NCBI GenBank assembly: GCA_025757685.1
Contig: CP107220.1
Coordinates: 830,124 to 894,123 of the forward strand
Reading direction: 5' to 3'
DNA: 64,000 nt
From: Oscillospiraceae bacterium
GTDB taxonomy: Bacteria > Bacillota > Clostridia > Oscillospirales > Acutalibacteraceae
The notes beneath the pieces are model-generated. The model was not told where the DNA came from and made no database searches. It was given only the letters and a program-made list of their open reading frames with translations. Made by a program: the position numbers and the translations under genes. Numbering within the stretch: the stretch's first letter is position 1; every line of letters starts with the position of its first letter. This document shows positions 13,138 through 42,706 of the stretch, piece after piece.

Positions 13138-13151
13138 AGCGGGGAAGTTTT

Positions 13152-26704: not shown

Positions 26705-26733
26705 TTGCATTTTTCTTTTGAATTTGCTATAAT
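26705..26733 (+). promoter_or_regulatory. Junction promoter at attL (host -35, -10 inside the repeat)
   Basis: TTGCAT, a 17-nt spacer, then TGc-TATAAT at 26728-26733, reading into the prophage left end. Confidence 0.35.
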
Positions 26734-26750
26734 TATACAAAATTAATATT
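26725..26750. repeat. Left 26-bp direct repeat (attL core)
   Basis: TGCTATAATTATACAAAATTAATATT, identical to 33722-33747. Confidence 0.9.
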
Positions 26751-26760
26751 CTGCCCTCAT

Positions 26761-26798
26761 AAAATGCACAAAAGGGGAGAGCCTTGCGGCTCTGCCCC
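26761..26798 (-). terminator. Minus-strand intrinsic terminator
   Basis: On the minus strand the sequence reads GGGGcAGAGCC-gcaa-GGCTCTCCCC followed by TTTTGTGCATTTT. It lies 18 nt after the stop of the 27-codon ORF. Confidence 0.6.
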
Positions 26799-26816
26799 TC
26801 GTGTGTCAGTTGGTCG

Positions 26817-26900
26817 TTATCGGAATAGGATTTCAAACTTCCAGCTGATCTTTTTGATTGCCCTGCCTGCCAGCAGGGCTTTTATTATTGCCCGGAACAC
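26817..26900 (-). CDS. Candidate 27-aa basic amphipathic peptide
   Basis: GTG start 8 nt after a perfect AAGGAGG. The peptide is (M)FRAIIKALLAGRAIKKISWKFEILFR, and the ORF is followed by its own terminator. Confidence 0.3.
   Translation of the reverse strand: MFRAIIKALLAGRAIKKISWKFEILFR
26860..26889 (+). terminator. Plus-strand intrinsic terminator
   Basis: GCCCTGC-ctgcca-GCAGGGC followed by TTTTATTATT. No T-run follows it on the other strand. Confidence 0.6.
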
Positions 26901-27100
26901 TCTTTTCACCTCCTTGCAGTCCCAGGTAGCGAACTTGAAATTGGCAAGCGTGCGTGCGCTGTCGCTCGTCGCTTGCATAGTCCGTTGGAAGTAGGCCGGG
27001 TGCGGCAAGTCAAGGGAGAAAAGCAAAAAGTCTGCAACAAGGCATAAGGAAGAGTTTTTGCGTACCCTTTACTTGTCGTACCAGGTCTGCTATATAACAC

Positions 27101-27131
27101 AAAAGCACCCCCTCCTGGGGGTGCTTTTTTT
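27101..27131. terminator. Bidirectional intrinsic terminator
   Basis: AAAA-GCACCCCC-tcct-GGGGGTGC-TTTTTTT. Confidence 0.75.
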
Positions 27132-27143
27132 ATTATTCGGTTG

Positions 27144-27209
27144 TTATTTTAATCGTGCGTAGCAAAATGCAGCTATTAGCATTGATATAAAAATTGCTAA
27201 AGCCTTCAT
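27144..27209 (-). CDS. Candidate 21-aa hydrophobic peptide downstream of the XRE gene
   Basis: A GGAAG RBS directly follows the XRE stop codon. The peptide is MKALAIFISMLIAAFCYARLK. The bidirectional terminator follows. Confidence 0.4.
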   Translation of the reverse strand: MKALAIFISMLIAAFCYARLK

Positions 27210-27222
27210 TATTCACTTCCTT

Positions 27223-27414
27223 TCACTGTTTTCTCATATACCTGATGATTTCATCATCTGGTATCCCTAATACGGATATTGCTTTTTTTATAGTCTCTAA
27301 TGTGGTCTTGTCCTCGTCTTTCTCTATTCGTTGGTACTGTCTTGCTGAAATGCCTATCATTTCTGCCGTCTGTTCTTGTGTGTATCCTTTGTTTTGTCTG
27401 TATTCCTTTAGCAT
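27223..27414 (-). CDS. XRE-family helix-turn-helix transcriptional regulator (phage repressor-like)
   Basis: MLKEYRQNKGYTQEQTAEMIGISARQYQRIE is a typical HTH_XRE N-terminus. A GGTGA RBS lies 5 nt before the ATG at 27414. The longer GTG start at 27465 lacks an RBS. Confidence 0.8.
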   Translation of the reverse strand: MLKEYRQNKGYTQEQTAEMIGISARQYQRIEKDEDKTTLETIKKAISVLGIPDDEIIRYMRKQ

Positions 27415-27458
27415 TTTAATCACCGTATATATTCTCTCATATTGATTTAATGTGCACC

Positions 27459-27547
27459 ACGACACTGTATGTCGTTTATTTTGAATTTTCTATTGACATT
27501 TGATGTCGTGTCTGTTAATAATGAATTGTAACGACACGATGTGTCGT
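27459..27547. promoter_or_regulatory. Divergent control region with three ACGACA/TGTCGT operator-like sites and a forward promoter
   Basis: ACGACA-N5-TGTCGT lies at 27459-27475. A TGTCGT half-site at 27504-27509 lies inside the promoter spacer. A perfect ACGACAC-GAT-GTGTCGT lies at 27531-27547. The promoter is TTGACA (27493-27498), a 17-nt spacer, then TAATAA (27516-27521). Confidence 0.55.
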
Positions 27548-27891
27548 ACTGCTGGAGTGATCCAGTACATGGCCGCCTCCGGGGAAGCCCCTATCTTCCC
27601 CGGGTGTTCGGCTTAGGAGGTGGTTTTATCCTTAGTCAGTATGATATAGAAACTGTAAAGGCGTTGCGTGATAGGGAGTGTTACCGTCTTGCACTTGATA
27701 TGTGCATTGACTTGTATAGTGACCTTTCGGTTACGCATGAAGTGGCTTTTAAGTTTCTGAGTGATAATGGCTTGCTTACTCATTGTTATAGGGACTTTGA
27801 GTTAGTACAGTTACAAGATAATGCCGAAAAGTGGCAATCAATTCTTAATTCATTCGATTTTGGAGGTTGTAAAAATGGTAGCAACGATTAA
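27541..27891 (+). CDS. Hypothetical phage protein (start uncertain)
   Basis: The open frame runs from a GTG inside the operator palindrome. The first 75 nt or so are GC-rich hairpins. The only strong RBS (AGGAGG, 27615-27620) precedes an in-frame ATC at 27628. Confidence 0.4.
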   Translation: MSYCWSDPVHGRLRGSPYLPRVFGLGGGFILSQYDIETVKALRDRECYRLALDMCIDLYSDLSVTHEVAFKFLSDNGLLTHCYRDFELVQLQDNAEKWQSILNSFDFGGCKNGSND

Positions 27892-28096
27892 AGGACAGTT
27901 CCTGGAGCAGGGTACATTTAACCGAAAGACCGGCGAAACGGTCGCGTATAGTGAGGTTTTGTGTGAGGATAATACGGTGGTGCAAATCAACGACTATATC
28001 CCGCCTGCCGGTACAAAGAAGTTTGATCCGGTCAATATCCGGGTAAAAATTCATTCAACAAAATTCGGCTTGCTGATCCGTAACGCGGATAAGTAA
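27875..28096 (+). CDS. Small phage protein, positional candidate for an ssDNA-binding (gV-like) protein
   Basis: 73 aa with a GGAGG RBS 7 nt upstream. It is soluble and beta-rich-looking and sits early in the operon. The function is inferred only from size and position. Confidence 0.45.
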   Translation: MVATIKGQFLEQGTFNRKTGETVAYSEVLCEDNTVVQINDYIPPAGTKKFDPVNIRVKIHSTKFGLLIRNADK

Positions 28097-28117
28097 TATA
28101 CCACCATAGTAAAGGAA

Positions 28118-29266
28118 GTGTCAGCAGTGAAACAGAAAGTAACCCCTTTCCTCTCCGTCCTGCTGGCACTTTCTTTTCTTATGCCTGCCGCTCTGTTTGC
28201 AAAGCCGATAGAAGCCCAGGCGGCACAATTTACTGCTAGTCCTACTTATGTCCGTGTAAGTGATGATAACGCATATAATAGTAAAACTTCGACTTGGACT
28301 TTTGGTGGGGACGGTAATAATAATAATCCTATTCCTGTTACGGATATTACATGGGGACGTCAACAAAACTGCGCTATGGTATCTACGATTGCGTTTTGTG
28401 GCACGACTTCTAAAAAGGTAGATGCGGGCGATACTATTAATGTTAAAGCCCAAATTTCCCTTTATGATTATGATGATGCTGGGTACAATATGTACTTTTG
28501 TATTTTCAATTCTGCGGGTAAACAGCTGATTACTCCGCGGCTGATGGATAAGTCCGGGTCTCGTAACTTCAAGCTATCTGTGAAGATTGCTAATGATGTT
28601 GAAGGGTATTTTGGCTTTATATCTGGAAAACTGACTTATGATTCATCAAGTGGAAGTTCTCATGTATTTACTGCTCGTATTATTAATTGGAATGTAGAAT
28701 GTGAGCCTGGTGAAGTAGGCTTTTGGAACGCAGTAAAAGAAGCCCTTACCAATGTGCTTACTTGGCTTAAAGAAATTCGTGATAAGATTGTAAATGGTTT
28801 TAATGATCTTGGTAAATTGATTTCTAATCAGTTTTCCAATCTTGTTAAAAATGTACAGTCTATGATTGATAGTGTCAATAAGTGGCTGTCAGACACCTTG
28901 GATAATATCAAGCAGTTTATGTCCAATGTAGGCAAGTGGTTTACAAACCTTGGTAATTCTATATCCGGCTTTTTTGAAAAGCTGTGGAATAGGATATGGT
29001 GGGGTAATGAGAACGGAGAGAGTGAGTATGTAAAGCCGACGATCAGCAATAAGTTGCTTGATATTCTCGCCACTCTCCAGGATTACCAAGAGAAGCTAAA
29101 ATCTACTATTGACACTATCGGCTCCGCTGCCAGTGATGTAGCAAACTATATCTCTGCTGGTACTTCCTTTGTCAATGGTGTTGTGGGTGTAACCGGTGCC
29201 GGATTTACTGCACTCATTGTCTTTGGTATCGTCTTTGTCCTGGTGCGAAAGGTGGTAGGTCGGTGA
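28118..29266 (+). CDS. Secreted, C-terminally anchored phage protein (pIII-like adsorption/minor coat candidate)
   Basis: Signal peptide ending AQA, an N-terminal domain, repeated amphipathic helices, and the C-terminal TM GFTALIVFGIVFVLVRKVVGR. Confidence 0.55.
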   Translation: MSAVKQKVTPFLSVLLALSFLMPAALFAKPIEAQAAQFTASPTYVRVSDDNAYNSKTSTWTFGGDGNNNNPIPVTDITWGRQQNCAMVSTIAFCGTTSKKVDAGDTINVKAQISLYDYDDAGYNMYFCIFNSAGKQLITPRLMDKSGSRNFKLSVKIANDVEGYFGFISGKLTYDSSSGSSHVFTARIINWNVECEPGEVGFWNAVKEALTNVLTWLKEIRDKIVNGFNDLGKLISNQFSNLVKNVQSMIDSVNKWLSDTLDNIKQFMSNVGKWFTNLGNSISGFFEKLWNRIWWGNENGESEYVKPTISNKLLDILATLQDYQEKLKSTIDTIGSAASDVANYISAGTSFVNGVVGVTGAGFTALIVFGIVFVLVRKVVGR

Positions 29267-29493
29267 AGTACATTATTGATTATATTATCGTCTTTACGGA
29301 CTGGCTTATTACCGCCATTAAAGATATTTTACTGCTCTTGTGGAACGTAATATTGATCGTGGTGGAAGCAGGGAAGTTTTTAATCTCCGTAGTTACTTCA
29401 CTTCCCGCTTTGGTTACTGTGCCTGCTGTGGCTTTGGTCGTTGCTTGTGTTCTGTATAAAGTCCTCGGTCGAGAGGGGGGAGAAGCAAGCTAA
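29263..29493 (+). CDS. Two-TM small phage membrane protein (pVI-like candidate)
   Basis: GTGA overlap with the upstream gene. 76 aa with two hydrophobic helices. Confidence 0.55.
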   Translation: MKYIIDYIIVFTDWLITAIKDILLLLWNVILIVVEAGKFLISVVTSLPALVTVPAVALVVACVLYKVLGREGGEAS

Positions 29494-29636
29494 TGGAAGA
29501 TCTTGCAAGCCTGTTTGGTCAAGGCTTTTCTATACTGTGGAATGCAAAACTTCTTGGTATGCCTATTATGTTTTGGTTTGTTCTTGTAGCCATATTTGGT
29601 ATTATCGGTAGTTTTTTGAAAGGTAAGAAAGAATGA
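29493..29636 (+). CDS. 47-aa coat-like single-TM protein
   Basis: Not in the ORF track. TAATG overlap upstream and ATGA overlap downstream. The peptide is MEDLASLFGQGFSILWNAKLLGMPIMFWFVLVAIFGIIGSFLKGKKE. Confidence 0.55.
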   Translation: MEDLASLFGQGFSILWNAKLLGMPIMFWFVLVAIFGIIGSFLKGKKE

Positions 29637-30157
29637 AAAAGAAGTTAGTTTTTATCGTATCTCTGCTGCTTGCACTGTCTATACCGTCAGTAGCCTATGC
29701 AGAGGAATACGGAAATACATATCCGGCTTATGTGCCGGTGTCGGGAGGTGCGTATATTGAGGTTCAGTGTGCCCTTGGGCGTGGGACGCTTGTCTTTGCG
29801 CGTGAGTACAAAGACGGTTATTTTGGCTTTTACGGCAGTGGCTATAGCCCTGCTAATATATCGCGTAGTACCATCAATGGCACCTACTATACGGCAGCTG
29901 GTGCAAAATATAATGCAAGGGTAAATGCAATGGGTGAAGCCCAGTATTATCGTGAGACAAGTACACGGTATGAATGGACAAACCTTAATGTCTCTAAAAT
30001 CTATAATACTAATGTGAAGTTTGAGGACTTTAAAGATGATCGTGCTAATATCATTGATTTGTTTTCTTATGATCCTGTTACTTATCTCTGGCTGGCTTGT
30101 ACTGTCGTTATAATCCTGCTGCTGATGTATATTGCTTGGAGGAGTTCTTGTGATTGA
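29633..30157 (+). CDS. Secreted, C-terminally anchored phage protein
   Basis: Signal peptide ending VAYA, Tyr/Gly-rich ectodomain, C-terminal TM. Confidence 0.55.
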   Translation: MKKKLVFIVSLLLALSIPSVAYAEEYGNTYPAYVPVSGGAYIEVQCALGRGTLVFAREYKDGYFGFYGSGYSPANISRSTINGTYYTAAGAKYNARVNAMGEAQYYRETSTRYEWTNLNVSKIYNTNVKFEDFKDDRANIIDLFSYDPVTYLWLACTVVIILLLMYIAWRSSCD

Positions 30158-30299
30158 GTATTTTACTAAATTGATAGGGGAGTGTCCCAGCTATCTTTAT
30201 GGCGTGGTGTATGTACTCTCTTTCTTCTTGGTCGTTTTTGGCCTGTATGTCATATTGACATTGATAAAAGTGTTTTTCAGTCCTTTTTTTAAGGGTTAG
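30150..30299 (+). CDS. 49-aa single-TM phage protein
   Basis: Not in the ORF track. The GTG start lies 5 nt after GGAGGAG and overlaps the upstream stop. Confidence 0.5.
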   Translation: MIEYFTKLIGECPSYLYGVVYVLSFFLVVFGLYVILTLIKVFFSPFFKG

Positions 30300-30313
30300 T
30301 GAGGTGATAATAT

Positions 30314-30499
30314 ATGCCCTTGTCTGTGATTGCTATGGAAGTAACTTCCGCTGCTGACGCTATTACGGAGTTTACTTCTGTTTTTACCAAAGCCTGGACT
30401 TTTTTGACCGGAAATTGGTACTTTCTCGCTTTAATTTGCGTGCCCTTGGGTGCTTTGCTTCTTTCTACAATTCTGGGCTTTATTCGGAGTAGAACCTAA
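30314..30499 (+). CDS. 61-aa coat-like protein (paralogue family with 31382 and 31689)
   Basis: GAGGTGA RBS. It starts MP, has an amphipathic N-terminus and one TM helix, and ends in the basic tail IRSRT. Confidence 0.6.
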   Translation: MPLSVIAMEVTSAADAITEFTSVFTKAWTFLTGNWYFLALICVPLGALLLSTILGFIRSRT

Positions 30500-30669
30500 T
30501 GGTTGCCGAATGTTTTAACAAAGCCATTGAATTTATAACAATAACAGCTGAAGCTTGGTTTTCTCTTGTTATTGATGAGTGGCCGTTGTTCCCTTGGTTC
30601 CTGCTTGGCTTTGCTGGGTTCTTGCTTTTGGTGGTACTTCGTTTCGTACTCCGAAAGGTGTATAGATAA
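30499..30669 (+). CDS. 56-aa coat-like single-TM protein
   Basis: Not in the ORF track. TAATG overlaps at both ends, with the basic tail LRFVLRKVYR. Confidence 0.5.
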   Translation: MVAECFNKAIEFITITAEAWFSLVIDEWPLFPWFLLGFAGFLLLVVLRFVLRKVYR

Positions 30670-31340
30670 TGTTATATAACACATTTGATGATACTATTAT
30701 GGAGCCTATCGGCTGGCTGTTTGAAGTGCTTAGTGGTGTGCTATATTTGCCGTTCCAATTCAATGAAGATACGATAATTGCCGGACTGATCGTCATTACA
30801 CCGATCGCAGCCGGTGCCTTGTGTTTGATCATTGATTGGGTCTTTGATGTCCGGGATGAGTTCAGTAACTTCCACCGCTTGGAAGATTATACTTCTTCAT
30901 TTCGGCAGCACTTCCAGCGCTATGGCCGACCTCGGCAGAGTAGGGTAGACCTCAAAGCATTAAAGGAATACCAAGACTATAAGCATAATCAAGCTATGGA
31001 GTTGCAAGAAAAGAAGCACGCATATACTCATGACTATCTGCAACAGCAGATGGCGCATACAAAAATCAAAAACGCTATGCAAACGGAGCAGTCTACGCGC
31101 TTCTCCCAAAACATAGATAAGTTGAAAAACTATCAAGAATACAAGTTTGGTAAACAGCAGGAAGCACTAAATTTCTTCCAGTCGGTGGCTGCTCAGTATC
31201 AAAATCATAGTAGTTCTCCGGCTGCGCTTCACGGCGGTTCTGCTTTGCCTGCCGTTCCTGCTTCGTACAAACCGAAAAGGGTCAATGGCGCTCCTGTTCC
31301 TCCCGGTAACCACCCTGAGTTGGATATTGAGGTGGATTGA
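30669..31340 (+). CDS. Phage membrane protein with a Gln/Lys-rich cytoplasmic or extracellular domain
   Basis: 223 aa with N-terminal TM helices and then a polar Q/K/Y-rich region. I recognise no motif. Confidence 0.5.
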   Translation: MLYNTFDDTIMEPIGWLFEVLSGVLYLPFQFNEDTIIAGLIVITPIAAGALCLIIDWVFDVRDEFSNFHRLEDYTSSFRQHFQRYGRPRQSRVDLKALKEYQDYKHNQAMELQEKKHAYTHDYLQQQMAHTKIKNAMQTEQSTRFSQNIDKLKNYQEYKFGKQQEALNFFQSVAAQYQNHSSSPAALHGGSALPAVPASYKPKRVNGAPVPPGNHPELDIEVD

Positions 31341-31381
31341 GCACATGACATACAGAGACTATAAAGAAAGGAGAAAATGCA

Positions 31382-31624
31382 ATGCCTGTTATTCTTGCTG
31401 ATACTGGTGCCGCAGGTGGCGTGAGTCTTGCTACTCTTGATACGCTGATCACTGGCATTAAATCGGCTATTGCTTGGATCTTTAGCTTGTTTGCTCGGAT
31501 CGTTAGCACGATCTCTACAAACGATTTGCTGCTGTATCCTGTGCTGCTGTGTATGGTGATTGCAGCTGTTACGCTTGCAATCCGCATTGTTCGTAAGTTT
31601 GGTATGAAGTCCCGCCGGTCTTAA
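31382..31624 (+). CDS. 80-aa major-coat-like protein, copy 1
   Basis: AAAGGAG RBS. The central VSTISTNDLLLYPVLL segment is followed by a TM helix and the basic tail RKFGMKSRRS. Confidence 0.6.
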   Translation: MPVILADTGAAGGVSLATLDTLITGIKSAIAWIFSLFARIVSTISTNDLLLYPVLLCMVIAAVTLAIRIVRKFGMKSRRS

Positions 31625-31688
31625 CCCGTGAGGGCGGCTTGTCCGCCTCCGGGTTGGACCGTATCAGTATTTAGAAAGGAGTTAATAT

Positions 31689-31931
31689 ATGCCTGTTTCT
31701 GCTGCATTGACCGCAGCGATTACTACAAGTGACATTTTCAGCAGTATGACTACTGTCTTTGAGCTGCTGATGGATCAGTTTACCACGACTGTATCTACGA
31801 TCACAAGTAATCCTTTGCTGTTCGTGCCTGTCCTCTGCGGATTTGGCGGTGGCCTAATTATGGCCGGCGTTAAAGTCGTTCGTAAGCTGGGCGTGCGCGG
31901 TATGGGCGGTCGGCGCCGCCGCCGCGGTTAA
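31689..31931 (+). CDS. 80-aa major-coat-like protein, copy 2
   Basis: AAGGAG RBS. VSTITSNPLLFVPVL is followed by a TM helix and the tail RKLGVRGMGGRRRRRG. It is a paralogue of 31382-31624. Confidence 0.6.
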   Translation: MPVSAALTAAITTSDIFSSMTTVFELLMDQFTTTVSTITSNPLLFVPVLCGFGGGLIMAGVKVVRKLGVRGMGGRRRRRG

Positions 31932-31941
31932 ATCTTAAATA

Positions 31942-31972
31942 TAGGCGTGGTAGGGGCACGCCTTATTTTTTT
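31942..31972 (+). terminator. Intrinsic terminator directly after the coat-like genes
   Basis: AGGCGTG-gtagggg-CACGCCT followed by TATTTTTTTT. Confidence 0.7.
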
Positions 31973-31987
31973 TGGAGTGATTAACTT

Positions 31988-32143
31988 ATGGAATTTATTA
32001 AAACGCTGTTTCAGCTGTTCAATTACCTTTTTCAATCCGCTTTTGTATTTTCCCCTTTTATACTTCTTTTTACTTCCTTGGGTGTGCTTCTCGTCCTTTC
32101 TGCGGCTCTACAATCATTTTTTAGGGGGTACTACAAGAAGTGA
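31988..32143 (+). CDS. 51-aa single-TM protein overlapping the pI-like gene start
   Basis: Not in the ORF track as such. A GGAGTGA RBS lies 8 nt upstream. The peptide is MEFIKTLFQLFNYLFQSAFVFSPFILLFTSLGVLLVLSAALQSFFRGYYKK. Its stop overlaps the GTG at 32140. Confidence 0.5.
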   Translation: MEFIKTLFQLFNYLFQSAFVFSPFILLFTSLGVLLVLSAALQSFFRGYYKK

Positions 32144-32847
32144 ATTTGTTTAATAAGAAAATCGCCAAACATAGCTTAGAGCCTTATTGTGTGATCGTTA
32201 CAGGCGATAGGGGAGTAGGTAAGTCTACTTTGTTCGCTCTTATTGTAGAAGCAGCTAAGAAAGAGGGCTTGGATGTATTCTGTCAATTCCCTTATAAAGA
32301 TTGTTACCAAATCCCACTTACATATATCACTAAGAAAGGCTATACCTACTTGGATATAGATAAACAGTGGCTATACTCTCACGACTTTAACCACTGTGTA
32401 CTCTTAATTGATGAAGCTAAAACCGTTTGGCCTGCTCGTGGCTATGCTGATTGGACAATGCAAGATGAACAGTTCTTTAACTTCCTCCGTAAAAATGATA
32501 TTCATTTATTCGCTGCTACACAAGCGTATGATGGTCTTGACCTTAATGTAAAGCGTGCTGCTGATGAAGTGTGGTATCTCACCCAGTTCTTTTGGCATTT
32601 TACACATATCGAATCAAGCCATACAACACTCTGTAAGGTCGCAGATAAACAAACCGAGGTGCAAGGCCGTATGTTTAAAAAAGGTATGAGAAAAGTAGCC
32701 TGGGATGTCTGTGAAGTACCTTTGAAAAACTTCTTGTTTTGGCGTAAGAGTTATTATGGTAGCTTCATTTCCAACTTTGTATTTGGAGAAAAGCCAAAGC
32801 CGCAGCTGGAAAGCTGGAACGATACGCCAGTGTTCAAATCTCTTTAA
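32140..32847 (+). CDS. pI/Zot-like phage morphogenesis ATPase
   Basis: Walker A is VTGDRGVGKST and Walker B is VLLIDEAKTVW. This block and FFNFLRKNDIHLFAATQ align by eye with the Ff pI segments VTGKLGAGKT, LLVLDECGTWF and IIDWFLHARKLGWDIIFLVQ. Confidence 0.7.
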   Translation: MNLFNKKIAKHSLEPYCVIVTGDRGVGKSTLFALIVEAAKKEGLDVFCQFPYKDCYQIPLTYITKKGYTYLDIDKQWLYSHDFNHCVLLIDEAKTVWPARGYADWTMQDEQFFNFLRKNDIHLFAATQAYDGLDLNVKRAADEVWYLTQFFWHFTHIESSHTTLCKVADKQTEVQGRMFKKGMRKVAWDVCEVPLKNFLFWRKSYYGSFISNFVFGEKPKPQLESWNDTPVFKSL

Positions 32848-32849
32848 GT

Positions 32850-32883
32850 CTTATAATATAGTAAGATTATACTAGATTATAAG
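32850..32883. other. 34-nt AT-rich imperfect hairpin between the pI-like and rep genes
   Basis: CTTATAAT-a-TAGTA-agatta-TACTA-g-ATTATAAG. Confidence 0.5.
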
Positions 32884-32943
32884 ATGTCTATTTTATTTCT
32901 CTTGTCTATTGCTCAAATAAGAACCAAATAGGGGGTGTTTTTT

Positions 32944-33699
32944 ATGGAGCGGAAGGTACCTAAACGCAGGATAGAAAAGATAGTTATAAGCGGTAATGTG
33001 ATAGAATATTACAGGTATCAGAAGCCCCTAAATGTAGAACCGCGTGAGCATGATATAGAAAAGAATAGAGAGACCTCGGAGGGAAAAAGAGATCGGAATT
33101 TATACCGTGCCCGTGCTGATCTACGCCGGGCGATATGGTGCAATACAACAGATTATACTAAGTTTGTGACACTTACATATAAAGATACAGTTTTAGATCA
33201 AGATCAAGTTTTATATGATTGGAAGCAATTTATTAAAAATTTAAGACGAAAAGGATATAAAGTCCCTTATGTTTACATTACGGAGCACCAAAAGAAAAGG
33301 GGACTAAAAGAAGGCAATGAAGGGTGCTTGCATATTCACGCTGTGCTTTTCACAGATGACTTTATCAGCGCTGATGTGATTAACGCCTGCTGGGGTAAAG
33401 GTCGTACAGAGATTAAAGCACTTCGGTCAATCAAAAACCTTGGCGCTTATGTCTGCAAATATCTAACAAAAGAAGAGTTTGACCTTTACCATAAACATAG
33501 CTACCACTTGTCGCGCGGTTTGAAAAAGCCGGAGGTGCTGACAACTGATGGCTATATAGGTCAGTGGCGTGATATGTACTCGAATATTCACGAAAATACA
33601 AAAGTAATTTATAGCAACGCAACGGAATTTGTTTACGCCGGAGCAGATGGCAGTATTCAATCAAATACCATTCTTTATGAGCAGGGTATATTTAAGTAG
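32944..33699 (+). CDS. HUH-superfamily rolling-circle replication initiator
   Basis: Motif 1 is FVTLTY, motif 2 is CLHIHAVLF (HUH) and motif 3 is GAYVCKYLTKE (catalytic Tyr). An AGGGGG RBS precedes the ATG at 32944. Confidence 0.7.
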   Translation: MERKVPKRRIEKIVISGNVIEYYRYQKPLNVEPREHDIEKNRETSEGKRDRNLYRARADLRRAIWCNTTDYTKFVTLTYKDTVLDQDQVLYDWKQFIKNLRRKGYKVPYVYITEHQKKRGLKEGNEGCLHIHAVLFTDDFISADVINACWGKGRTEIKALRSIKNLGAYVCKYLTKEEFDLYHKHSYHLSRGLKKPEVLTTDGYIGQWRDMYSNIHENTKVIYSNATEFVYAGADGSIQSNTILYEQGIFK

Positions 33700-33701
33700 G
33701 G

Positions 33702-33730
33702 TTGACTATAGGTGAAAATAATGCTATAAT
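33702..33730 (+). promoter_or_regulatory. Near-consensus promoter spanning the phage end and the repeat, reading toward the xer gene
   Basis: TTGACT (33702-33707), a 17-nt spacer ending in TGc, then TATAAT (33725-33730). Confidence 0.5.
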
Positions 33731-33747
33731 TATACAAAATTAATATT
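33722..33747. repeat. Right 26-bp direct repeat (attR core)
   Basis: Identical to 26725-26750. Confidence 0.9.
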
Positions 33748-33756
33748 TTGTATAAT
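33729..33756. other. dif-like 28-bp recombination-site candidate
   Basis: ATTATACAAAA-TTAATA-TTTTGTATAAT, with perfectly inverted 11-bp arms around a 6-bp centre, 17 bp upstream of the recombinase start. Confidence 0.5.
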
Positions 33757-33773
33757 TCAGGGGAGTTGATACA

Positions 33774-34763
33774 GTGAAAAAAGCGGAATTTGGGCAATTA
33801 CCCATGCCCGTACAGGACTATCTGTTGTATTTGGAGGCCATCAAAGGTCATAGCGAATTATCGGTGATCGAATATGCGTCGGATTTGCGCACCTTCTTTC
33901 GCTACCTTGCCAAGGAAAAAAATCTGTATCCGCCTGACACGCCGGACGATCAAATGGATCTACGACAAATCAATATGGACTTTATCAAGACCATTACACT
34001 GAGCGACGCCTACCAGTTCTTAATCTACTGCAAGAACCAACGCGGCAACGCGGAAGCCACCCGTGCGCGGCGTGTGATCGCCATACGGCGCTTTTTTATC
34101 TATTTAACGGACAACCGGCACTTGCTGGAGGAAAATCCAATGAAAGTGCTGGACGCGCCGAAAACAAAAAAAGCCCTTCCAAAGTACATGACCTTGGAAG
34201 AAGCACGCCATTTATTATCCGTTGTAGACGGCAAACACAAAGAGCGGGATTACGCCATTTTGACCTTACTTCTGAACTGCGGTATGCGACTGAGCGAGTT
34301 GGTGTCCATTGATTATAATGATATAAAATCAAACGATACATTGGTGATCACCGGTAAAGGCAACAAGGAGCGCACCGTGTACTTAAACGATGCTTGCAAA
34401 ACCGCCGTTACGGCCTATATGCGGGTGCGGCCGCACGACGGTGTAAAGGACAAAGCTTTATTTCTAAGCAGCCGCAACCAGCGGATCAGCCCCAAGACGG
34501 TACAACACATGGTGTACGCTTATTTGGACAAGGCCGGGCTGGGCGATCGAGGCTTGTCCGTGCATAAGCTGCGCCATACGGCAGCCACACTGATGTACCA
34601 AAATGGACATGTGGATCTGCTGCTGCTTAAAGAGATTCTGGGCCATGAAAACCTGGGTACTACGGAAATCTATACCCACATCAGCGACGACGCAGCCAAG
34701 GCCGCCATTGAGGCCAATCCCCTTGCCGATCTTAATGCGCCTAAATCGAGATCACAGAACTGA
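33774..34763 (+). CDS. xerD: XerC/XerD-family site-specific tyrosine recombinase (host-encoded)
   Basis: N-terminal SAM-like domain (YLLYLEAIKGHSELSVIEY). The catalytic residues are GMRLSEL (Arg), HKLRHTAAT (H-x-x-R) and LGHENLGTTEIYTH (His, Tyr). The gene lies outside the prophage repeats, and the spoIIM neighbour matches Bacillus ripX. I am less certain of the gene symbol than of the family. Confidence 0.8.
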   Translation: MKKAEFGQLPMPVQDYLLYLEAIKGHSELSVIEYASDLRTFFRYLAKEKNLYPPDTPDDQMDLRQINMDFIKTITLSDAYQFLIYCKNQRGNAEATRARRVIAIRRFFIYLTDNRHLLEENPMKVLDAPKTKKALPKYMTLEEARHLLSVVDGKHKERDYAILTLLLNCGMRLSELVSIDYNDIKSNDTLVITGKGNKERTVYLNDACKTAVTAYMRVRPHDGVKDKALFLSSRNQRISPKTVQHMVYAYLDKAGLGDRGLSVHKLRHTAATLMYQNGHVDLLLLKEILGHENLGTTEIYTHISDDAAKAAIEANPLADLNAPKSRSQN

Positions 34764-37513: not shown

Positions 37514-38539
37514 TCAGCAGATAAACATTGCGTCGCCAAAGGAGAAGAAGCGGTACTTCTCCGCCACGGCGGTATTGTAAGCGTGCATAATGTGGTCAAA
37601 TCCGGCAAAAGCACTAACCAGCATGATCAGCGTGCTCTCCGGCAGGTGGAAGTTGGTGATCAGTGCATCCATGCACTTGAATTCATACCCGGGATAAATA
37701 AAAATGCTGGTGTTATCGTCATCCTCGCAAATACAGCCGTTCTTGGTTGCCACAGACTCAATGGTGCGGCAGGAGGTGGTACCAACAGCAATCACCCGAC
37801 CGCCGTTTGCCTTGGTACGGTTGATCAGCTCCGCCGTCTCTGCCGGCATGTGGTAGTGCTCCGTGTGCATTTTGTGCTTGGTTACATCTTCCACCTTAAC
37901 CGGACGGAAGGTGCCCAGCCCAACATGCAATGTTACATAGCCGATATTGACGCCCATGGCCTGAATATCCTTTAGCATTTGTGGGGTAAAGTGCAGTCCG
38001 GCGGTAGGCGCCGCAGCGGAACCTAACTCCCGGCTGTACACCGTTTGATAACGCTCCTTATCTTGGAGCTTTTCCTTAATATACGGCGGCAGAGGCATTT
38101 GACCGATCTGGTCCAGCACCGCATAAATATTCCCCTGGCAGTCGAATTGCACCAGCCGGTTGCCGTCCTCTTGTATCTCAATGACCGTGCCGTAGAGTTT
38201 GCCCTCGCCGAAGTTAAAGCGGGTACCCACCTTGGCGCGCTTGCCCGGCTTGCACAGACACTCCCACACATTATTTTCCTTTTGAGTCAGCAGCAGAAAT
38301 TCAACAACCGCACCGGTCTCTTCCTTAACGCCGTAGATACGGGCGGGAATGACCCGGGTATCGTTGAGAATCAGGCAGTCACCGGGGCGCAGATATTCCG
38401 GCAAATCCTTAAAGATCCGATGCTCCAGTTCGCCGCTGTCCTTGTGCAAGATCATCAGGCGCGAGCTGTTTCGCGGCTCCACCGGGGTCTGCGCGATCAA
38501 TTCCTGGGGCAAATCGTAATAAAAATCAGAAGTTTTCAT
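37514..38539 (-). CDS. queA: S-adenosylmethionine:tRNA ribosyltransferase-isomerase
   Basis: [14 protein letters not shown] and [10 protein letters not shown] motifs. A GGAGA RBS precedes the ATG at 38539. Confidence 0.9.
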
Positions 38540-38686
38540 AATTATCTCCGCAAAAGTATTTGACATATATATATAGTAAGTGATATTATATCTAAAAGCA
38601 AGCGGTATTTACCCACCGCAGGCGCTGTAAGATATTATATTGCAAAATGCTGCGTTTTACAAGGCATTTTTTTAAGGAGAGTCACA

Positions 38687-39775
38687 ATGAACAAAAAGTA
38701 CAAAGTCGGTATCGTCGGCGCAACCGGTATGGTCGGTCAGCGCTTCGCCCTGCTGCTGGAGAATCACCCCTGGTTTGAGGTGGTGTGCCTGGCAGCCTCT
38801 GCACGCTCTGCTGGTAAGCCTTACAAAGAGGCGCTGGGCAGCAGATGGTGCATGGATAAACCCATTCCCGCCAACATGGCAGACCTGCCGGTGTATGACG
38901 CCCAGGCAGATATAGAAAAGATCACCTCTATGGTAGACTTTGTGTTCTGCGCCGTGGATATGAAAAAGGATGAGATTCGCGCGCTGGAGGAACAGTATGC
39001 CAAGCACGAGTGCCCGGTGGTATCTAACAACTCTGCCAACCGGTTCACTCCGGATGTGCCCATGGTGGTGCCGGAGCTGAATCCCCAGCATATTGACATT
39101 ATTCCCGCCCAGCGTAAACGTTTGGGCACCAAGCGCGGCTTTATCGCCGTAAAGTCCAACTGTTCTTTGCAGAGCTATGTGCCCGCCATCTTCCCCCTGC
39201 ACCAGAAGTACGGCATTAAACGGGTGCTGGTGTGCACCTACCAGGCCATAAGCGGTGCAGGCAAGACCTTTGAGCGCTGGCCGGAGATGATCGACAATGT
39301 GATTCCTTACATCGGCGGTGAGGAAGAAAAGAGCGAGAAAGAGCCGCTGAAGCTGATGGGCCACATTGTGGGCGACCAGATCGTGTCTGCAGATGCACCG
39401 GCCTTTACTGCGCAGTGCATTCGCGTGCCGGTGACCAACGGTCACCTGGGCGCCGTATTTATGGACTTTGAAGGTGAGAAACCCTCTGAGGAAGAGATTA
39501 TTGAGGTGTGGAAGAACTACGCCGGTCGTGCCCAGGAGCTGGAGCTGCCCAGCGCGCCCAAACAGTTCCTGCACTACTTTACCGAGCCGGATCGCCCGCA
39601 GATTCACAGCGAGCGTGAGCTGGAGCACGGTATGGCCGTGTCCATCGGCCGTCTGCGCCCGGATACACAGTATGATTACAAGTTTGTATGTCTGTCCCAC
39701 AACACTCTGCGCGGCGCTGCCGGCGGCGCAGTGCTGCTGGCAGAATTGCTGGCAGCCGAGGGTTATATGGACTGA
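38687..39775 (+). CDS. asd: Aspartate-semialdehyde dehydrogenase
   Basis: VGIVGATGMVGQ Rossmann motif and the active-site segment SNCSLQS. Confidence 0.9.
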   Translation: MNKKYKVGIVGATGMVGQRFALLLENHPWFEVVCLAASARSAGKPYKEALGSRWCMDKPIPANMADLPVYDAQADIEKITSMVDFVFCAVDMKKDEIRALEEQYAKHECPVVSNNSANRFTPDVPMVVPELNPQHIDIIPAQRKRLGTKRGFIAVKSNCSLQSYVPAIFPLHQKYGIKRVLVCTYQAISGAGKTFERWPEMIDNVIPYIGGEEEKSEKEPLKLMGHIVGDQIVSADAPAFTAQCIRVPVTNGHLGAVFMDFEGEKPSEEEIIEVWKNYAGRAQELELPSAPKQFLHYFTEPDRPQIHSERELEHGMAVSIGRLRPDTQYDYKFVCLSHNTLRGAAGGAVLLAELLAAEGYMD

Positions 39776-39802
39776 TAACACAGCGAAAAGGAGATTTTTG
39801 AT

Positions 39803-40696
39803 ATGAAGAAGGATCCTATCTTTACAGGCGCAGCCGTTGCCATTATTACCCCTATGCATGAGGACGGCAGCGTAAATTATGACGAGTTTGCCCGGTTTGT
39901 GGACTGGCAGATTGACAACGGTACAGACGCCATCGTAATCTGCGGCACCACCGGCGAAAGCTCTACCCTGGATGTTGATGAGCACCTGGAGTGCATCAAG
40001 TGGTGCATCGAGTATGTGAACGGTCGTGTGCCGGTGATCGCCGGTACAGGCTCCAACTCCACCGCCAGCGCCATTGAAATGAGCAAGGAAGCCTGCGAAT
40101 ACGGCGCAGACGCTCTGCTTTTGGTGACCCCCTACTACAACAAGACCAGCCAGGCCGGTCTGATCGCCCACTATACTGCGATTCACGATGCAACGGATAA
40201 GCCCATTGTGCTTTATAATGTGCCGTCCCGCACCGGGTTGAACCTGCTGCCGGAGACGGCGCTGGAGCTGTCCAAGCTGCCCCGCATTAACGGCATTAAA
40301 GAAGCATCCGGCAACCTGGATCAGGTAGCTAAAGTACACGAGCTGTGCGGTGACGCACTGAACATTTGGAGCGGCAACGACGACCAGATTGTAGACATTC
40401 TGGAGCGCGGCGGTAAAGGTGTAATCAGCGTACTGTCTAATGTATGCCCCCAGGAAACCCACGACATTGTGGCTAAGTACCTGGACGGCGATGTGGACGG
40501 CTCCAAGGCACTGATGGATCACTATTTTGAGCTGGCAAAGACCCTGTTCTGCGATGTGAATCCCATTCCGGTTAAGGACGCTGTGAACCGCATCGGTTAC
40601 GCAGCCGGTCCCTGCCGTATGCCGCTGGTACCCTTGAGCGAGGCCAATCAGCAGAAGATGCAGGCAACACTGGAAAAGTACGGCCTGATCAAATAA
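39803..40696 (+). CDS. dapA: 4-hydroxy-tetrahydrodipicolinate synthase
   Basis: GTTGESSTL and YNVPSRTG motifs, with the Schiff-base Lys context GIKEASG. Confidence 0.9.
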   Translation: MKKDPIFTGAAVAIITPMHEDGSVNYDEFARFVDWQIDNGTDAIVICGTTGESSTLDVDEHLECIKWCIEYVNGRVPVIAGTGSNSTASAIEMSKEACEYGADALLLVTPYYNKTSQAGLIAHYTAIHDATDKPIVLYNVPSRTGLNLLPETALELSKLPRINGIKEASGNLDQVAKVHELCGDALNIWSGNDDQIVDILERGGKGVISVLSNVCPQETHDIVAKYLDGDVDGSKALMDHYFELAKTLFCDVNPIPVKDAVNRIGYAAGPCRMPLVPLSEANQQKMQATLEKYGLIK

Positions 40697-40718
40697 AAAG
40701 CACAGGAAGTTCAAAGCT

Positions 40719-41468
40719 ATGACGAGAATAATTATTACCGGCGCCAACGGCAAAATGGGTCATGTGATCCGCAGCGTTGTAGCCGGTCGGGAGGACTGCA
40801 CGGTAGTAGCCGGTGTGGATTTTAACACCCAGGCGGCCGACTTCCCTATCTATAAAACGATTGCAGAGGTGCAGGAAGAAGCGGATGTGATTATCGACTT
40901 CTCCAACCCTGCCCTCTTAGACGATCTGCTGACCTATTCCGCCGCCAAGTCTATGCCCTTGGTAATCGCCACCACCGGCTACACGGCGGAGCAAAAGGCC
41001 AAGATTGAAGCCGCAGCTGAAAAGAGCCCCATCTTCTTCACTTATAATATGAGTATGGGCATTAACCTGCTGGCGACCTTAGCACAGAAAGCGGTCAATG
41101 TACTGGGACCGGATTTTGACATTGAAATTGTGGAAAAGCACCATAATCAGAAGATCGACGCGCCCAGCGGCACAGCATTGATGCTGGCAGACGCCATGTG
41201 CAAGGAGATCGATCACCCCATGAAGTACGAATATGACCGGCACGCCAAGCGCGAAAAGCGCACCCGGGACGAGATCGGCATTCATGCTGTACGAGGCGGC
41301 ACCATTGTAGGCGAACATGAGATCATCTTTGCCGGCAGGGACGAGATCATTACTTTGTCTCACTCTGCACGAAGCAAAGAGATCTTTGCCGTAGGCGCTG
41401 TGAATGCTGCCGTCTTTATGTGCGGAAAAGACGCCGGGCTGTATGACATGAGCCAAATGATTCACTAA
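40719..41468 (+). CDS. dapB: 4-hydroxy-tetrahydrodipicolinate reductase
   Basis: ITGANGKMG N-terminus and the EKHHNQKIDAPSGTA motif. Confidence 0.9.
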   Translation: MTRIIITGANGKMGHVIRSVVAGREDCTVVAGVDFNTQAADFPIYKTIAEVQEEADVIIDFSNPALLDDLLTYSAAKSMPLVIATTGYTAEQKAKIEAAAEKSPIFFTYNMSMGINLLATLAQKAVNVLGPDFDIEIVEKHHNQKIDAPSGTALMLADAMCKEIDHPMKYEYDRHAKREKRTRDEIGIHAVRGGTIVGEHEIIFAGRDEIITLSHSARSKEIFAVGAVNAAVFMCGKDAGLYDMSQMIH

Positions 41469-41475
41469 TTCTTGT

Positions 41476-41508
41476 CCCTATTCTGCGGAATAGGGACTTA
41501 TTCTTTTT
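41476..41508 (+). terminator. Intrinsic terminator after dapB
   Basis: CCCTATTC-tgcg-GAATAGGG followed by a T-rich tract. Confidence 0.6.
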
Positions 41509-41518
41509 GGAGGACGGT

Positions 41519-42706
41519 ATGAACCAGACAGAACAGGTCTTTCTCTCTCTGCTGCGGGATTATGTTTGCGGACAAAAATTAAAAGCCCTTCCCACCGTAG
41601 ACTGGCAGGCACTGTATAACTTGGCGCAAAGTCATAATGTGACCGGTCTTGTGGGTCGTATCTTGGCAGATCTTCCTACCGATCATCGCCCTCCAAAAGC
41701 CCTTGCAGTGGCCTTTCGCCAAGGGATGGGTCAAACCCTAATGGCTTACGAAAAGCGTATGGCGGCCGTGCAGGTGATGGAGCAAACACTAACGGACGCC
41801 CACATCCCCTACTTAACGGTGAAAGGCGCCTGCACTGCGGCAGCCTACCCGGATCCCTCCTTGCGCACCTGCGGCGATACGGATATTGTGCTGACGCCAG
41901 AGCACCAGCGAGAAGCGGTACAGACTTTGGAACAGCGTGGCTTTGCCAAAAAAGTGACCCACGACGATGTGGTGATGCTCACCCTGCATGGATTTGAATT
42001 TGAACTGCACACACGGTTGGAAAGCATTAACGACGGCTCTCGCGCCCTGCTGGCAAACCCTTTTGCACCGGAAGTGGCATACAATAAATCCAAAAATATC
42101 TGGGTGCTGCAACCGGTATATGCCGTTTATTACACCATGCTGCACCTGCTGCACCACATCAAAACCGGCGGTGCCGGCGTGCGTATGCTGCTGGACACAG
42201 ACTTGCTCCTTCGCAAGGATCCGACACTTGCACCACAGGTACTGGAATTGGCCGAGCGCAGCGGACTGGAGCGGTCCTTTGGCTGTATCCTTGCCCTGTG
42301 TAAGCAGTGGCTGGATACGCCCCTTCCCTGTTCGGTGCCGGCATTGGATACGGACACGGTAGAGAAGTTCGCTGCCGTGATTTTAGGCGGCGGCGTGTTC
42401 GGTCACGGCAACGGCAACACCGGTGCTGTATTCCTGGCCCGGCAAAAGGCCGCAGATGGCAGCAAAACACCCTTTACCCGTTTGGTCGCATTGTTTCGCT
42501 ACTGCTTCCCAAAAGCGGATTATATGGCCTACCAGTTCCCTTATTTGATCCGGCAGCCCTGTCTGCTTCCCTTTGCATACCTACACCGATTTTGTCGCGG
42601 ACTGTTTCGCAATCGGACCCACTCCGCGGCGGCATTGCAAGCCATTGCCGGCAAAAATCAAGGTGCTGCTCTGCTGCACCAGGTGTGGGCGGAGCTGGAT
42701 TTATAA
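41519..42706 (+). CDS. Uncharacterised nucleotidyltransferase-family protein
   Basis: A GGAGGA RBS precedes the ATG at 41519. It has the GDTDIVL motif typical of the NTP_transf_5-like family. Confidence 0.5.
   Translation: MNQTEQVFLSLLRDYVCGQKLKALPTVDWQALYNLAQSHNVTGLVGRILADLPTDHRPPKALAVAFRQGMGQTLMAYEKRMAAVQVMEQTLTDAHIPYLTVKGACTAAAYPDPSLRTCGDTDIVLTPEHQREAVQTLEQRGFAKKVTHDDVVMLTLHGFEFELHTRLESINDGSRALLANPFAPEVAYNKSKNIWVLQPVYAVYYTMLHLLHHIKTGGAGVRMLLDTDLLLRKDPTLAPQVLELAERSGLERSFGCILALCKQWLDTPLPCSVPALDTDTVEKFAAVILGGGVFGHGNGNTGAVFLARQKAADGSKTPFTRLVALFRYCFPKADYMAYQFPYLIRQPCLLPFAYLHRFCRGLFRNRTHSAAALQAIAGKNQGAALLHQVWAELDL

Follow-up and report, generated by a model that had tools for sequence, protein, structure and literature searches.

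A stretch of 64,000 nucleotides from an Oscillospiraceae bacterium of the family Acutalibacteraceae (GenBank assembly GCA_025757685.1, contig CP107220.1, positions 830,124 to 894,123; hereafter the window) carries, at 26725-33747, a compact block of phage-like genes that ends next to a xer recombinase gene. We consider it probable that this block is the prophage of a temperate, inovirus-like filamentous phage (Tubulavirales) in a human-gut Oscillospiraceae/Acutalibacteraceae host, and that it belongs to the integrative mobile elements that exploit Xer (IMEXs), having been put in at the chromosomal dif site by the Xer recombinase of the host. This interpretation is carried by the observed gene content, the architecture of the attachment (att) sites, a precise empty site in a conspecific contig, an insertion site shared across species, purifying selection and circular relatives. 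The phage itself is of a known kind and is already present in IMG/VR as a provirus (locus L035); its variant features are the xer-linked palindromic dif-like integration site, a clade-wide rule by which the phage attachment site (attP) shares one arm and the centre with that site, and a pI-type ATPase that has no transmembrane (TM) segment.

Extent and protein content of the prophage

The block is bounded by a direct repeat (26725-26753 and 33722-33750) of 29 nt with one mismatch, the first 26 nt of which are perfect, as an initial annotation made from the sequence had reported. Repeat comparison and alignment with the empty site described below define the perfect copies as the attL core (26725-26750) and the attR core (33722-33747), and the prophage, measured between the repeat starts with one repeat copy counted, is 6,997 bp long, a size within the roughly 5-15 kb of inovirus-like filamentous phages. 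The same annotation had described the block as AT-rich, with about 33% GC against 60% in the flanks; it is indeed AT-richer than its surroundings, but these figures were overstated, the actual values being 41.7% in the element and 52.4% in the remainder of the window. Fifteen open reading frames (ORFs) are tightly packed on the + strand and one, encoding an XRE-family repressor, is divergent on the - strand. The overlapping stop and start codons that had been listed were all found when checked base by base (GTGA at 29263, TAATG at 29491-29495, ATGA at 29633, a GTG at 30150 inside the end of the upstream gene, TAATG at 30497 and 30667, and GTGA at 32140). Searches of the whole window with Rfam (gathering thresholds) and ARAGORN returned no RNA family and no tRNA, and the insertion is therefore not in a tRNA gene.

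Two enzymes identify the block as related to filamentous phages. The first is a P-loop protein of 235 amino acids (aa; 32140-32847, + strand), which the initial annotation had aligned by eye with pI/Zot. It matches the Pfam family Zot (PF05707, 21.1 bits, cutoff 20.3) and the ‘Zot-like’ PHROG 197 (E=4.9e-5), and it carries a Walker A motif (GDRGVGKS) at residue 22 and the motif LLIDEA at residue 88. A profile made from 21 Zot-family sequences matches PDB entry 2R2A (E=8e-8), whose database molecule name is ‘Uncharacterized protein’ and which we take to be the N-terminal domain of Neisseria Zot. The family has 124 homologues in gut metagenomes and in metagenome-assembled genomes (MAGs) labelled as Eubacterium sp., Ruminococcus sp. 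and Acutalibacteraceae, many of which are precomputed as PF05707. The second enzyme is a 251-aa rolling-circle replication protein (Rep) of the HUH superfamily, G2P/ORF2 type (32944-33699, + strand), with significant matches to PF23343 (REP_ORF2-G2P, 65 bits, E=7e-18) and PHROG 3584 (E=2.5e-26). In the 251-aa form, the three motifs that had been read in it, FVTLTY, HIHAVLF and YVCKYLTKE, are placed at residues 74, 130 and 169; the HUH and YxxKY signatures are both present.

Most of the remaining proteins are small and membrane-associated according to hydropathy. At least seven small TM proteins had been counted before; the Kyte-Doolittle scan gives nine of 47-80 aa, with one hydrophobic segment in eight of them and two in the 76-aa protein, and mostly with basic tails. 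Likewise, the two proteins previously described as having a signal peptide and a C-terminal anchor were recovered, with a signal-like N-terminus and such an anchor: a 382-aa protein (379 aa according to gene callers; 28118-29266, + strand), candidate adsorption protein and pIII analogue, the C-terminal half of which is conserved and the N-terminal half variable, and a 174-aa protein (29633-30157, + strand), also present in relatives and a candidate minor virion protein. Two paralogous 80-aa proteins fit the plan of a coat protein, with one TM segment and a basic C-terminus: protein a (31382-31624, + strand), with an amphipathic N-terminus and five lysine or arginine residues in its tail, is the major coat candidate, and protein b (31689-31931, + strand) has six such residues. 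Directly 3′ of this pair lies the intrinsic-terminator-like hairpin with a T-run that the initial annotation had pointed out (31943-31963, + strand).

The Pfam and PHROG scans were run on the larger proteins and both coat-like proteins, that is, on all but seven small TM ORFs. Among the proteins scanned there was no match to capsid, portal, terminase or lysis families, in line with the earlier reading of the ORFs, and no recombinase domain. Tape-measure-like PHROG matches were obtained over residues ~200-360 of the 382-aa protein. Since nothing else in the 7 kb is tail-like, we read them as matches to a repetitive helical region of this protein; a tailed phage was rejected because no other tail, head or terminase gene is present and because other small elements with Zot have the same region in their adsorption-like proteins.

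The 235-aa Zot-like protein has no 19-residue window that reaches a Kyte-Doolittle value of 1.6. In relatives, including bajarodino virus 43 (PQ006155.1, a circular faecal genome) and the contig L005 described below, neither three longer Zot ORFs nor three ORFs located 3′ of Zot contain a hydrophobic segment, and the lack of a TM segment thus appears from these ORFs to be a feature of the lineage. Anchoring would therefore go through a partner, and the simplest membrane anchor of the ATPase may be the coupled 51-aa single-TM protein (31988-32143, + strand), the stop codon of which overlaps the Zot start (GTGA).

A 73-aa protein (27875-28096, + strand) was modelled with AlphaFold from its single sequence, because a homologue search gave only 7 close matches. 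The model is all-beta and resembles an oligonucleotide/oligosaccharide-binding (OB) fold, with a predicted local distance difference test score (pLDDT) of 85; the best Foldseek matches are OB folds, all with E of at least 0.027 and thus not significant. Its designation as a candidate single-stranded DNA (ssDNA)-binding protein, analogous to that of gene V, is a guess from the model.

A palindromic dif-like site upstream of xer

Three features of the locus had escaped the initial annotation: the element has no integrase, its repeat is half of a palindromic dif-like site beside xer, and the locus lies at a switch in GC skew. The attR repeat forms the left part of a perfect 28-bp palindrome (33729-33756), ATTATACAAAA-TTAATA-TTTTGTATAAT, which consists of two 11-bp arms around a 6-bp centre, the 11-6-11 geometry of a Xer/dif core site. 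This palindrome is unique in the window, even when three mismatches are allowed. The 26-bp identity of the repeat corresponds to one arm, the 6-bp centre and two further nucleotides. At attL a hybrid site is found (26732-26759), with the intact arm ATTATACAAAA, the centre TTAATA and a degenerate phage-derived arm, TTCTGCCCTCA, which matches the host arm at 4 of 11 positions. The attP would accordingly be made up of one good arm, the centre of the host and a poor second arm, with a predicted junction of ...GGTGAAAATAA-TGCTATAATTATACAAAATTAATATT-[C/G]TGCCCTCATAAAAT. The arms of the palindrome match the XerD-side arm of dif at 8/11 positions both for E. coli (TTATGTTAAAT) and for B. subtilis (TTATGTAAACT), the dif sequences of these two species being experimentally defined sites (PMC3025954). 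After one of the two arms comes a GGGGA motif (in the window, TTTTGTATAATTCAGGGGA).

The xer gene (33774-34763, + strand) starts 17 bp downstream of the palindrome and is followed by spoIIM on the opposite strand. Its 329-aa product is a Xer-type tyrosine recombinase and carries the conserved motifs of the catalytic region; the best NCBIfam models are XerC, XerA and XerD, all scoring under their curated equivalog cutoffs, and the best PDB matches are XerD (1A0P) and XerA (4A8E). No Xer paralogue was found in the 64-kb window, and the perfect symmetry of the arms suggests that a single recombinase acts on the site, with no XerC/XerD pair. That xer could be the integrase of the phage itself was considered and rejected: the repeats do not enclose the gene, the empty site still has it, and its host synteny is preserved. 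An attP of folded ssDNA, as in CTX-phi, was unsupported, there being a single dif-like site near the element ends.

With the prophage removed, the cumulative G-C curve has its maximum 130 bp from the palindrome; the mean 1-kb skew amounts to +0.052 left of the site (n=26) and to -0.069 right of it (n=30), with p=1.5e-7 in a Mann-Whitney test, and the long ORFs mostly point towards the site, being on the + strand on the left and on the - strand on the right. Judged by its sequence and setting, the palindrome would be the chromosome-dimer-resolution site of the host, and we infer that host Xer catalyses both integration and excision of the prophage.

The same site in relatives and a sister species

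One genome per GTDB species was scanned with the Zot profile, which yielded 19 loci. In all ten of these loci with enough downstream DNA, an orthologue of Xer (47-77% identical) is located 0.4-3 kb beyond Zot on the same strand, and in 7/10 it is followed by spoIIM; synteny between xer and spoIIM is seen in 8 other loci, and that with the host genes spoIIM, yajC, tgt and queA extends across species. The arms ATTATACAAAA and TTTTGTATAAT recur upstream of xer, around a centre that depends on the host (TTAATA, TTATTA, TATTAA, TAAATA or CTTTTA). Each of the relative prophages has a second copy of the motif 6.9-9.2 kb away, composed of one arm, the centre and a degenerate arm; this arm-plus-centre design of attP was found in nine other integrated relatives, with a centre that co-varies with that of the host. 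The distance between site and xer is 17 bp in the window and about 35 to 460 bp in other species.

Several variations of the site were observed. Strains of the same species differ in the centre, which is TTATTA in L002 (3606/10534), L035 (1093/8021) and L032 (80) vs TTAATA in the window (26732/33729), and the change between TTATTA and TTAATA appears at both attL and attR of the resident prophage. In L017 (3246/12453) the centres at attL and attR are TAGATA and TAAATA, and in L018 (3651/12407) TAAAGA and TAGATA, respectively; both loci have an intact palindrome ~450 bp upstream of xer and an extra lone right arm in promoter-like sequence before xer. Three species have the complete site in the opposite orientation with respect to xer (TCCCCTAAATTATACAAAA; L013 3357/10590, L027 4391/12317, L029 5172/12070), and the phages at these inverted sites carry the GGGGA-side arm in their attP.

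The replication genes of the phages at this site are not all of one family. The Rep of PF23343 is found in the window, L017 and L025, while L013 carries Rep_OBD (PF01719) at the same xer-adjacent site. A third type, Rep_trans (PF02486), is encoded by L009, a phage-only contig that starts with the same arm-plus-centre motif and has no xer context.

In a sister species, in which the Xer protein is identical throughout, the site is either empty (L045, L043) or holds other elements. In L040 (4386-9588) and L044 (2103-7305) it is occupied by a distant 5.2-kb inovirus with an XRE gene, Rep_OBD, a 267-aa Zot-like protein and a 469-aa adsorption-like protein; the arm and centre of dif are part of the 29-nt repeat at its boundaries. 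In L041 (5676-9565) and L042 (5718-9565) an element of about 4 kb with a 414-aa adsorption-like protein and small ORFs sits at the same xer-proximal site. The three ORFs scanned in it gave no Zot or Rep match, the other ORFs being <90 aa, and no attL could be recognised with at most one mismatch allowed; the element may be either a satellite or a prophage that has decayed.

Two GenBank records named ‘Bacteriophage sp.’ were evaluated as evidence of particles and rejected. The first, MT839262.1 (L032, 1-1910; ‘UNVERIFIED: Bacteriophage sp.’, human faeces), holds the terminal part of Rep along with the dif-like site, xer (98% identical) and spoIIM, and is a prophage-host junction. The second, MT836776.1, offers only a dif-like site close to one of its ends, without anything homologous to this phage.

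Mobility, circular forms and selection

The prophage is mobile and maintained. The same arrangement as in the window is found in L002, L003 (run SRR17687125) and the IMG/VR provirus L035, whereas the conspecific contig L004, with an identical Xer protein and collinear flanks (97.4% identity on the left, 99.4% on the right), is without exactly positions 26751-33721 and retains one copy of the core, ...TTTGCTATAATTATACAAAATTAATATTTTGTATAATTCAGG..., that is, a precise empty site. The block is therefore variably present within one species, and the universal conservation in relatives that the initial annotation had named as a sign of error was not found. Two further signs of that kind did not appear either, since both enzymes have significant profile matches and the small ORFs have hydrophobic segments. 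Downstream of spoIIM, L004 also has an extra segment of ~1.1 kb (12050-13193) with an APH-family (aminoglycoside phosphotransferase-like) gene, which sits between small genes and is missing at ~35822 in the window.

All 16 ORFs of the prophage are intact and their lengths are conserved in L002, L003, L033 and L035. Over all ORFs, the ratio of nonsynonymous to synonymous substitution rates (dN/dS) is 0.064 against L033 and 0.124 against L002 (each about 95% identical). Small and large ORFs are constrained to the same degree, which indicates that the small ones are real genes and that the lineage is under selection for function.

Circular relatives were also found. The related Logan contig L005 closes on itself through an overlap of 30 nt, i.e. 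k-1 for k=31, and similar contigs are present in further runs. In L033 (7,056 bp, five samples, among them SRR27381143), the whole phage is present at 95% identity and the ends are exactly the 26-bp core. Such ends would be expected of a k=31 assembly graph that branches at both edges of the core, which would mean that an attP junction, either of a free circle or of a tandem copy, coexists with attL and attR. Together with the collinearity with bajarodino virus 43 (see below) and the low dN/dS, these two contigs support the earlier proposal of an intact or recently active filamentous prophage.

Alternative explanations

A number of findings weigh against the interpretation as a functional inovirus integrated by host Xer at dif, and they are considered here together with the alternatives to which they lend support. 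Most of them concern the nature of the site. In L017 and L018, attL has a centre unlike that of attR at one or more positions, so that the strand exchange proposed here is tentative in its details. It is conceivable, although we regard it as unlikely, that the prophage is an inovirus but that the palindrome is not a dimer-resolution site, xer and its site being a dedicated integration module or hotspot, or an autoregulatory operator, and the recombinase a domesticated integrase that serves mobile elements. The palindrome overlaps the xer promoter, with the -10 element TGCTATAAT within the repeat, and could therefore also, or instead, be an autoregulatory operator. A recombinase gene beside its own site resembles phage integration modules, as has been remarked for xerS-difSL (PMC1914069), and the scores of Xer with the NCBIfam models for XerC, XerD and XerA are below the curated cutoffs. 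In addition, the skew switch is not sharp: because of a weakly positive patch at 38-44 kb, a t-test changepoint falls ~10 kb to the right of the cumulative maximum, and in the short flanks of 12 other loci the GC skew has the expected direction and is too weak to count. The uniqueness of the palindrome and the single Xer refer to the 64-kb window and not to the whole genome. On the other hand, the site and the cumulative skew maximum are 130 bp apart, the layout of 11-6-11 and the similarity of the arms to XerD half-sites fit a Xer site, and xer is kept at the empty site and in the host synteny (spoIIM, yajC, tgt, queA) across species. Furthermore, the adjacency of gene and site is also seen in single-recombinase systems such as XerS/difSL (PMC1914069).

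A second group of findings concerns the phage itself. These would fit a cryptic or defective remnant, or a helper-dependent satellite that forms no virions on its own, which we find improbable in view of the integrity of the genes. The PF05707 match of the Zot-like protein is only just above the cutoff (21.1 vs 20.3), the TM segment by which canonical pI ties the cytoplasmic ATPase to the envelope is missing from it, the two coat-like proteins have no family match in PHROGs, and a Zot-less and Rep-less element occupies the same site in a sister species (L041/L042). All TM and signal calls are predictions of the Kyte-Doolittle scan. The formation of virions, with circular ssDNA packaged in a filament and released without lysis, is predicted from the genes, and the circular relatives and the core-bounded contig L033 lend it indirect support. 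Exact scans for the predicted attP junction gave no match in IMG/VR (36 nt) or in JGI metagenome contigs (31 nt), and are uninformative because they need exact matches and because circles from the human gut may be missing from these collections; the argument from L033 relies on the behaviour of assembly graphs, in which a tandem prophage would look the same as a free circle. Against a remnant or satellite stand the 16 intact ORFs under strong purifying selection (dN/dS 0.06-0.12, small ORFs included), the full set of modules (repressor, Rep, ATPase, coat-like genes and adsorption-like protein) and the ends of L033, which fit an attP junction. The lack of a TM segment in Zot is, moreover, common to the lineage, circular bajarodino virus 43 and L005 included.

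It is highly improbable that integration is carried out by a function of the phage, either the HUH Rep or an unrecognised small protein, with the proximity to xer reflecting a coincidental target preference. HUH enzymes can mediate integration in some other elements, and Xer catalysis is deduced here from sequence. However, at least two unrelated Rep families (PF23343 and PF01719) share the site and the arm-plus-centre attP, and this makes integration driven by Rep unlikely; a third family (PF02486 in L009) goes with the same motif on a phage-only contig. Moreover, the repeat equals one arm plus the centre of a core site of the tyrosine-recombinase type, and the element proteins scanned contain no recombinase domain. 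Finally, an integrated rolling-circle plasmid or other non-viral mobile element with membrane-protein genes, suggested by the Rep families shared with plasmids (PF01719 in relatives), can be practically dismissed given the Zot/pI-family ATPase, the ten genes collinear with a faecal genome deposited as Inoviridae and the coat-like pair followed by a terminator, as in the layout of Ff phages.

Control region and remaining features

Between attL and the first gene there is a non-coding stretch of 472 nt (26751-27222, + strand), which is unusually structured when folded as a single strand (z = -6.7) and is a candidate for the packaging signal and the replication origins; the terminator scan places a bidirectional terminator inside it (27101-27128). 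The divergent XRE-family repressor, recognised earlier and now supported by a match to Pfam HTH_3 (E=1e-15), is encoded at 27223-27465 on the - strand. The control region between it and the main operon (27459-27547) was defined by motif and promoter scans and contains two palindromic operators, ACGACACnnnRTGTCGT, at 27459-27475 and 27531-27547 (0.05 matches expected by chance), which bracket a rightward promoter, TTGACA-18-AATAAT (27493-27522).

The rightward operon starts with a 116-aa protein of unassigned role (27541-27891, + strand), for which there is also a gene call in L002. The remaining small ORFs, all on the + strand, encode the 76-aa protein with two hydrophobic segments, conserved among relatives (29263-29493), and single-TM proteins of 47 aa (29493-29636), 49 aa (30150-30299), 61 aa (30314-30499) and 56 aa (30499-30669), of which those of 47 and 61 aa are also seen in relatives. 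Next comes a protein of 223 aa (30669-31340, + strand) that has a TM segment at its N-terminus and varies at its C-terminus. Its counterpart in L002 (7548-8144) has 198 aa, and only the N-terminal ~160 codons align, so that the C-terminus differs between phages that are otherwise 95% identical.

At the right end, the phage contributes a promoter-like sequence, TTGACT-17-(TG)TATAAT (33702-33730, + strand), that points into xer. At the empty site the xer promoter reads TTGCAT-17-TGCTATAAT (L004 9925-9990 compared with window 33700-33760); upon integration the right end of the phage brings a better -35 element (TTGACT), while the -10 element stays in the repeat, and the -35/-10 pair of the host faces the non-coding left end of the phage at attL. 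Integration might alter the expression of xer.

Farther to the right, the patch at 38000-44000 of the window combines weakly positive GC skew with + strand ORFs and interrupts the negative-skew right arm. In L002, L003 and L040 the stretch downstream of queA, which is the counterpart of this patch, carries genes for aspartate-semialdehyde dehydrogenase, DHDPS and DapB.

Proposed life cycle

In the lysogen, the XRE repressor would bind to the two operators flanking the rightward promoter and keep the 15-gene operon silent. Derepression would allow the HUH Rep to start rolling-circle replication, and the small OB-fold-like 73-aa protein would probably cover the resulting single strand. The Zot/pI-type ATPase, probably held by its small TM partner, would then assemble the membrane-inserted coat proteins (the two 80-aa paralogues and minor proteins) around the DNA at the membrane. 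No secretin is encoded in the element, and none would be necessary in a monoderm host, the cell type usually assumed for Oscillospiraceae. Host Xer would recombine attP with the 28-bp palindrome, leading to integration or, in reverse, excision; integration would rebuild an intact site at attR and leave a crippled one at attL. With no recombinase of its own and host Xer acting on attP and the palindrome, the element would be an IMEX with an attP of the type known from TLC-phi and the gonococcal genomic island (GGI).

Significance of the site

Hardly any filamentous phages of Gram-positive gut anaerobes have been characterised, and their route to lysogeny is undescribed in the literature searched. 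The broadest claim compatible with our data stands, in our estimation, at even odds: that these phages are the first IMEX family described in Gram-positive bacteria and that they expose an undescribed dif/Xer system of Oscillospirales, in which a perfect 11-6-11 dif at the terminus lies directly upstream of a single XerD/XerA-like gene, overlaps that gene's promoter and serves as a hotspot where inoviruses and Zot-less satellite-like elements replace one another. If integration does occur through Xer at dif, many inovirus prophages of Clostridia that appear to be ‘integrase-adjacent’ would be IMEXs, and the xer gene next to them should be counted as chromosomal and not as viral. The sequence rule (arm, centre and degenerate arm, beside xer) would then delimit such prophages and predict their hosts from the centre, and a candidate chromosome-dimer-resolution system would be available for a large uncultured gut clade, much as the element LME-1 revealed dif/XerL in Legionella. 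In addition, a pI-type ATPase that has no TM segment and is coupled to a small membrane protein offers a form of the inovirus assembly machine that can be tested where there is no outer membrane.

Comparison with known systems

The closest phage in GenBank is bajarodino virus 43. Its circular genome of 8,022 bp comes from woodrat faeces and was deposited as Inoviridae, and its Zot protein is 76% identical. Ten morphogenesis genes are collinear between the two, including those for the C-terminal half of the adsorption-like protein, proteins of 76, 174, 55 and 61 aa, the pair of 80-aa coat-like proteins and the 51-aa protein that overlaps Zot. In contrast, bajarodino virus 43 has Rep_OBD (PF01719) instead of the PF23343 Rep and another regulatory module; it is a circular metagenomic genome with no host assigned, and it contains no copy of the dif arm of the window host.

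Among characterised filamentous phages, Ff (M13/fd/f1) has in common with the element a small genome, an HUH Rep and an ATPase of the pI family. The membrane-inserted coat proteins of Ff are small, as are the coat-like proteins here, and Ff has a terminator behind its major coat gene, as the element has a terminator-like hairpin behind the coat-like pair. It differs from Ff in lacking a pIV secretin, in a pI-like protein without TM segment and C-terminal domain, in having Rep as its last gene, in being temperate with an XRE switch, and in coat-like proteins that, by inspection, have no cleavable leader.

Inoviruses of Gram-positive hosts have been reported before. The statement of the initial annotation that few of them are characterised is fair, while uncharacterised ones are already numerous (PMC6813254, PMC10061712). 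The inoviruses of Enterocloster were shown in 2023 by Burckhardt to be secreted in vitro and in vivo and to have flanking direct repeats (PMC10061712). Like the element, they come from gut commensal Clostridia, measure 6.5-8.5 kb and encode a pI homologue with 10-16 other ORFs; their hosts are Enterocloster and not Oscillospiraceae/Acutalibacteraceae MAGs, and the likeness noted here is one of description. The text of that study does not mention dif, Xer or any recombinase (PMC10061712). The 2019 survey by Roux reported thousands of inovirus-like sequences, with att sites as repeats in tRNA genes or outside an integrase gene (PMC6813254), and Xer and dif are likewise unmentioned in its text (PMC6813254).

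IMEX phages are well known in Proteobacteria, where they have been described mainly for cholera-type phages, whereas full-text searches of a limited collection, in which absence is not proof, returned no paper on an IMEX in a Gram-positive host; the Xer/dif arrangement described here for Clostridia appears to be undescribed in the literature searched. Like the element, the Vibrio phages TLC-phi, VGJ-phi and CTX-phi and the gonococcal GGI have no integrase of their own, and they integrate at dif, as is proposed for the element. The attP of TLC-phi and of the GGI has one binding arm and a central region that match dif, and a divergent second arm (PMC5357621), which is also the architecture of the attP predicted for the element, whereas CTX-phi uses a pair of inverted sites that fold into a forked hairpin and the element has one dif-like site in its attP. 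The succession of different elements at one site, seen here in a sister species, is a known behaviour of dif in Vibrio. The Vibrio IMEXs differ in using an asymmetric XerC/XerD site far from both genes, instead of a symmetric palindrome directly upstream of xer, and in their hosts, the present one being a bacterium of the class Clostridia in which Xer catalysis is predicted from sequence.

The location of the site immediately upstream of the recombinase gene is shared with XerS/difSL of Streptococcaceae (PMC1914069). As with LME-1, which revealed the dif/XerL system of Legionella (PMC9765430), it is a dif-mimicking mobile element that points to the site. The near-palindromic arms would fit one protein binding on both sides, as in the single-recombinase systems XerS/difSL, XerL and archaeal XerA/dif. 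In contrast to the 31-bp difSL, the site described here is a 28-bp palindrome of 11-6-11, and its Xer is nearest to XerD/XerA and not to XerS; the single-recombinase status and a role in dimer resolution are predictions here.

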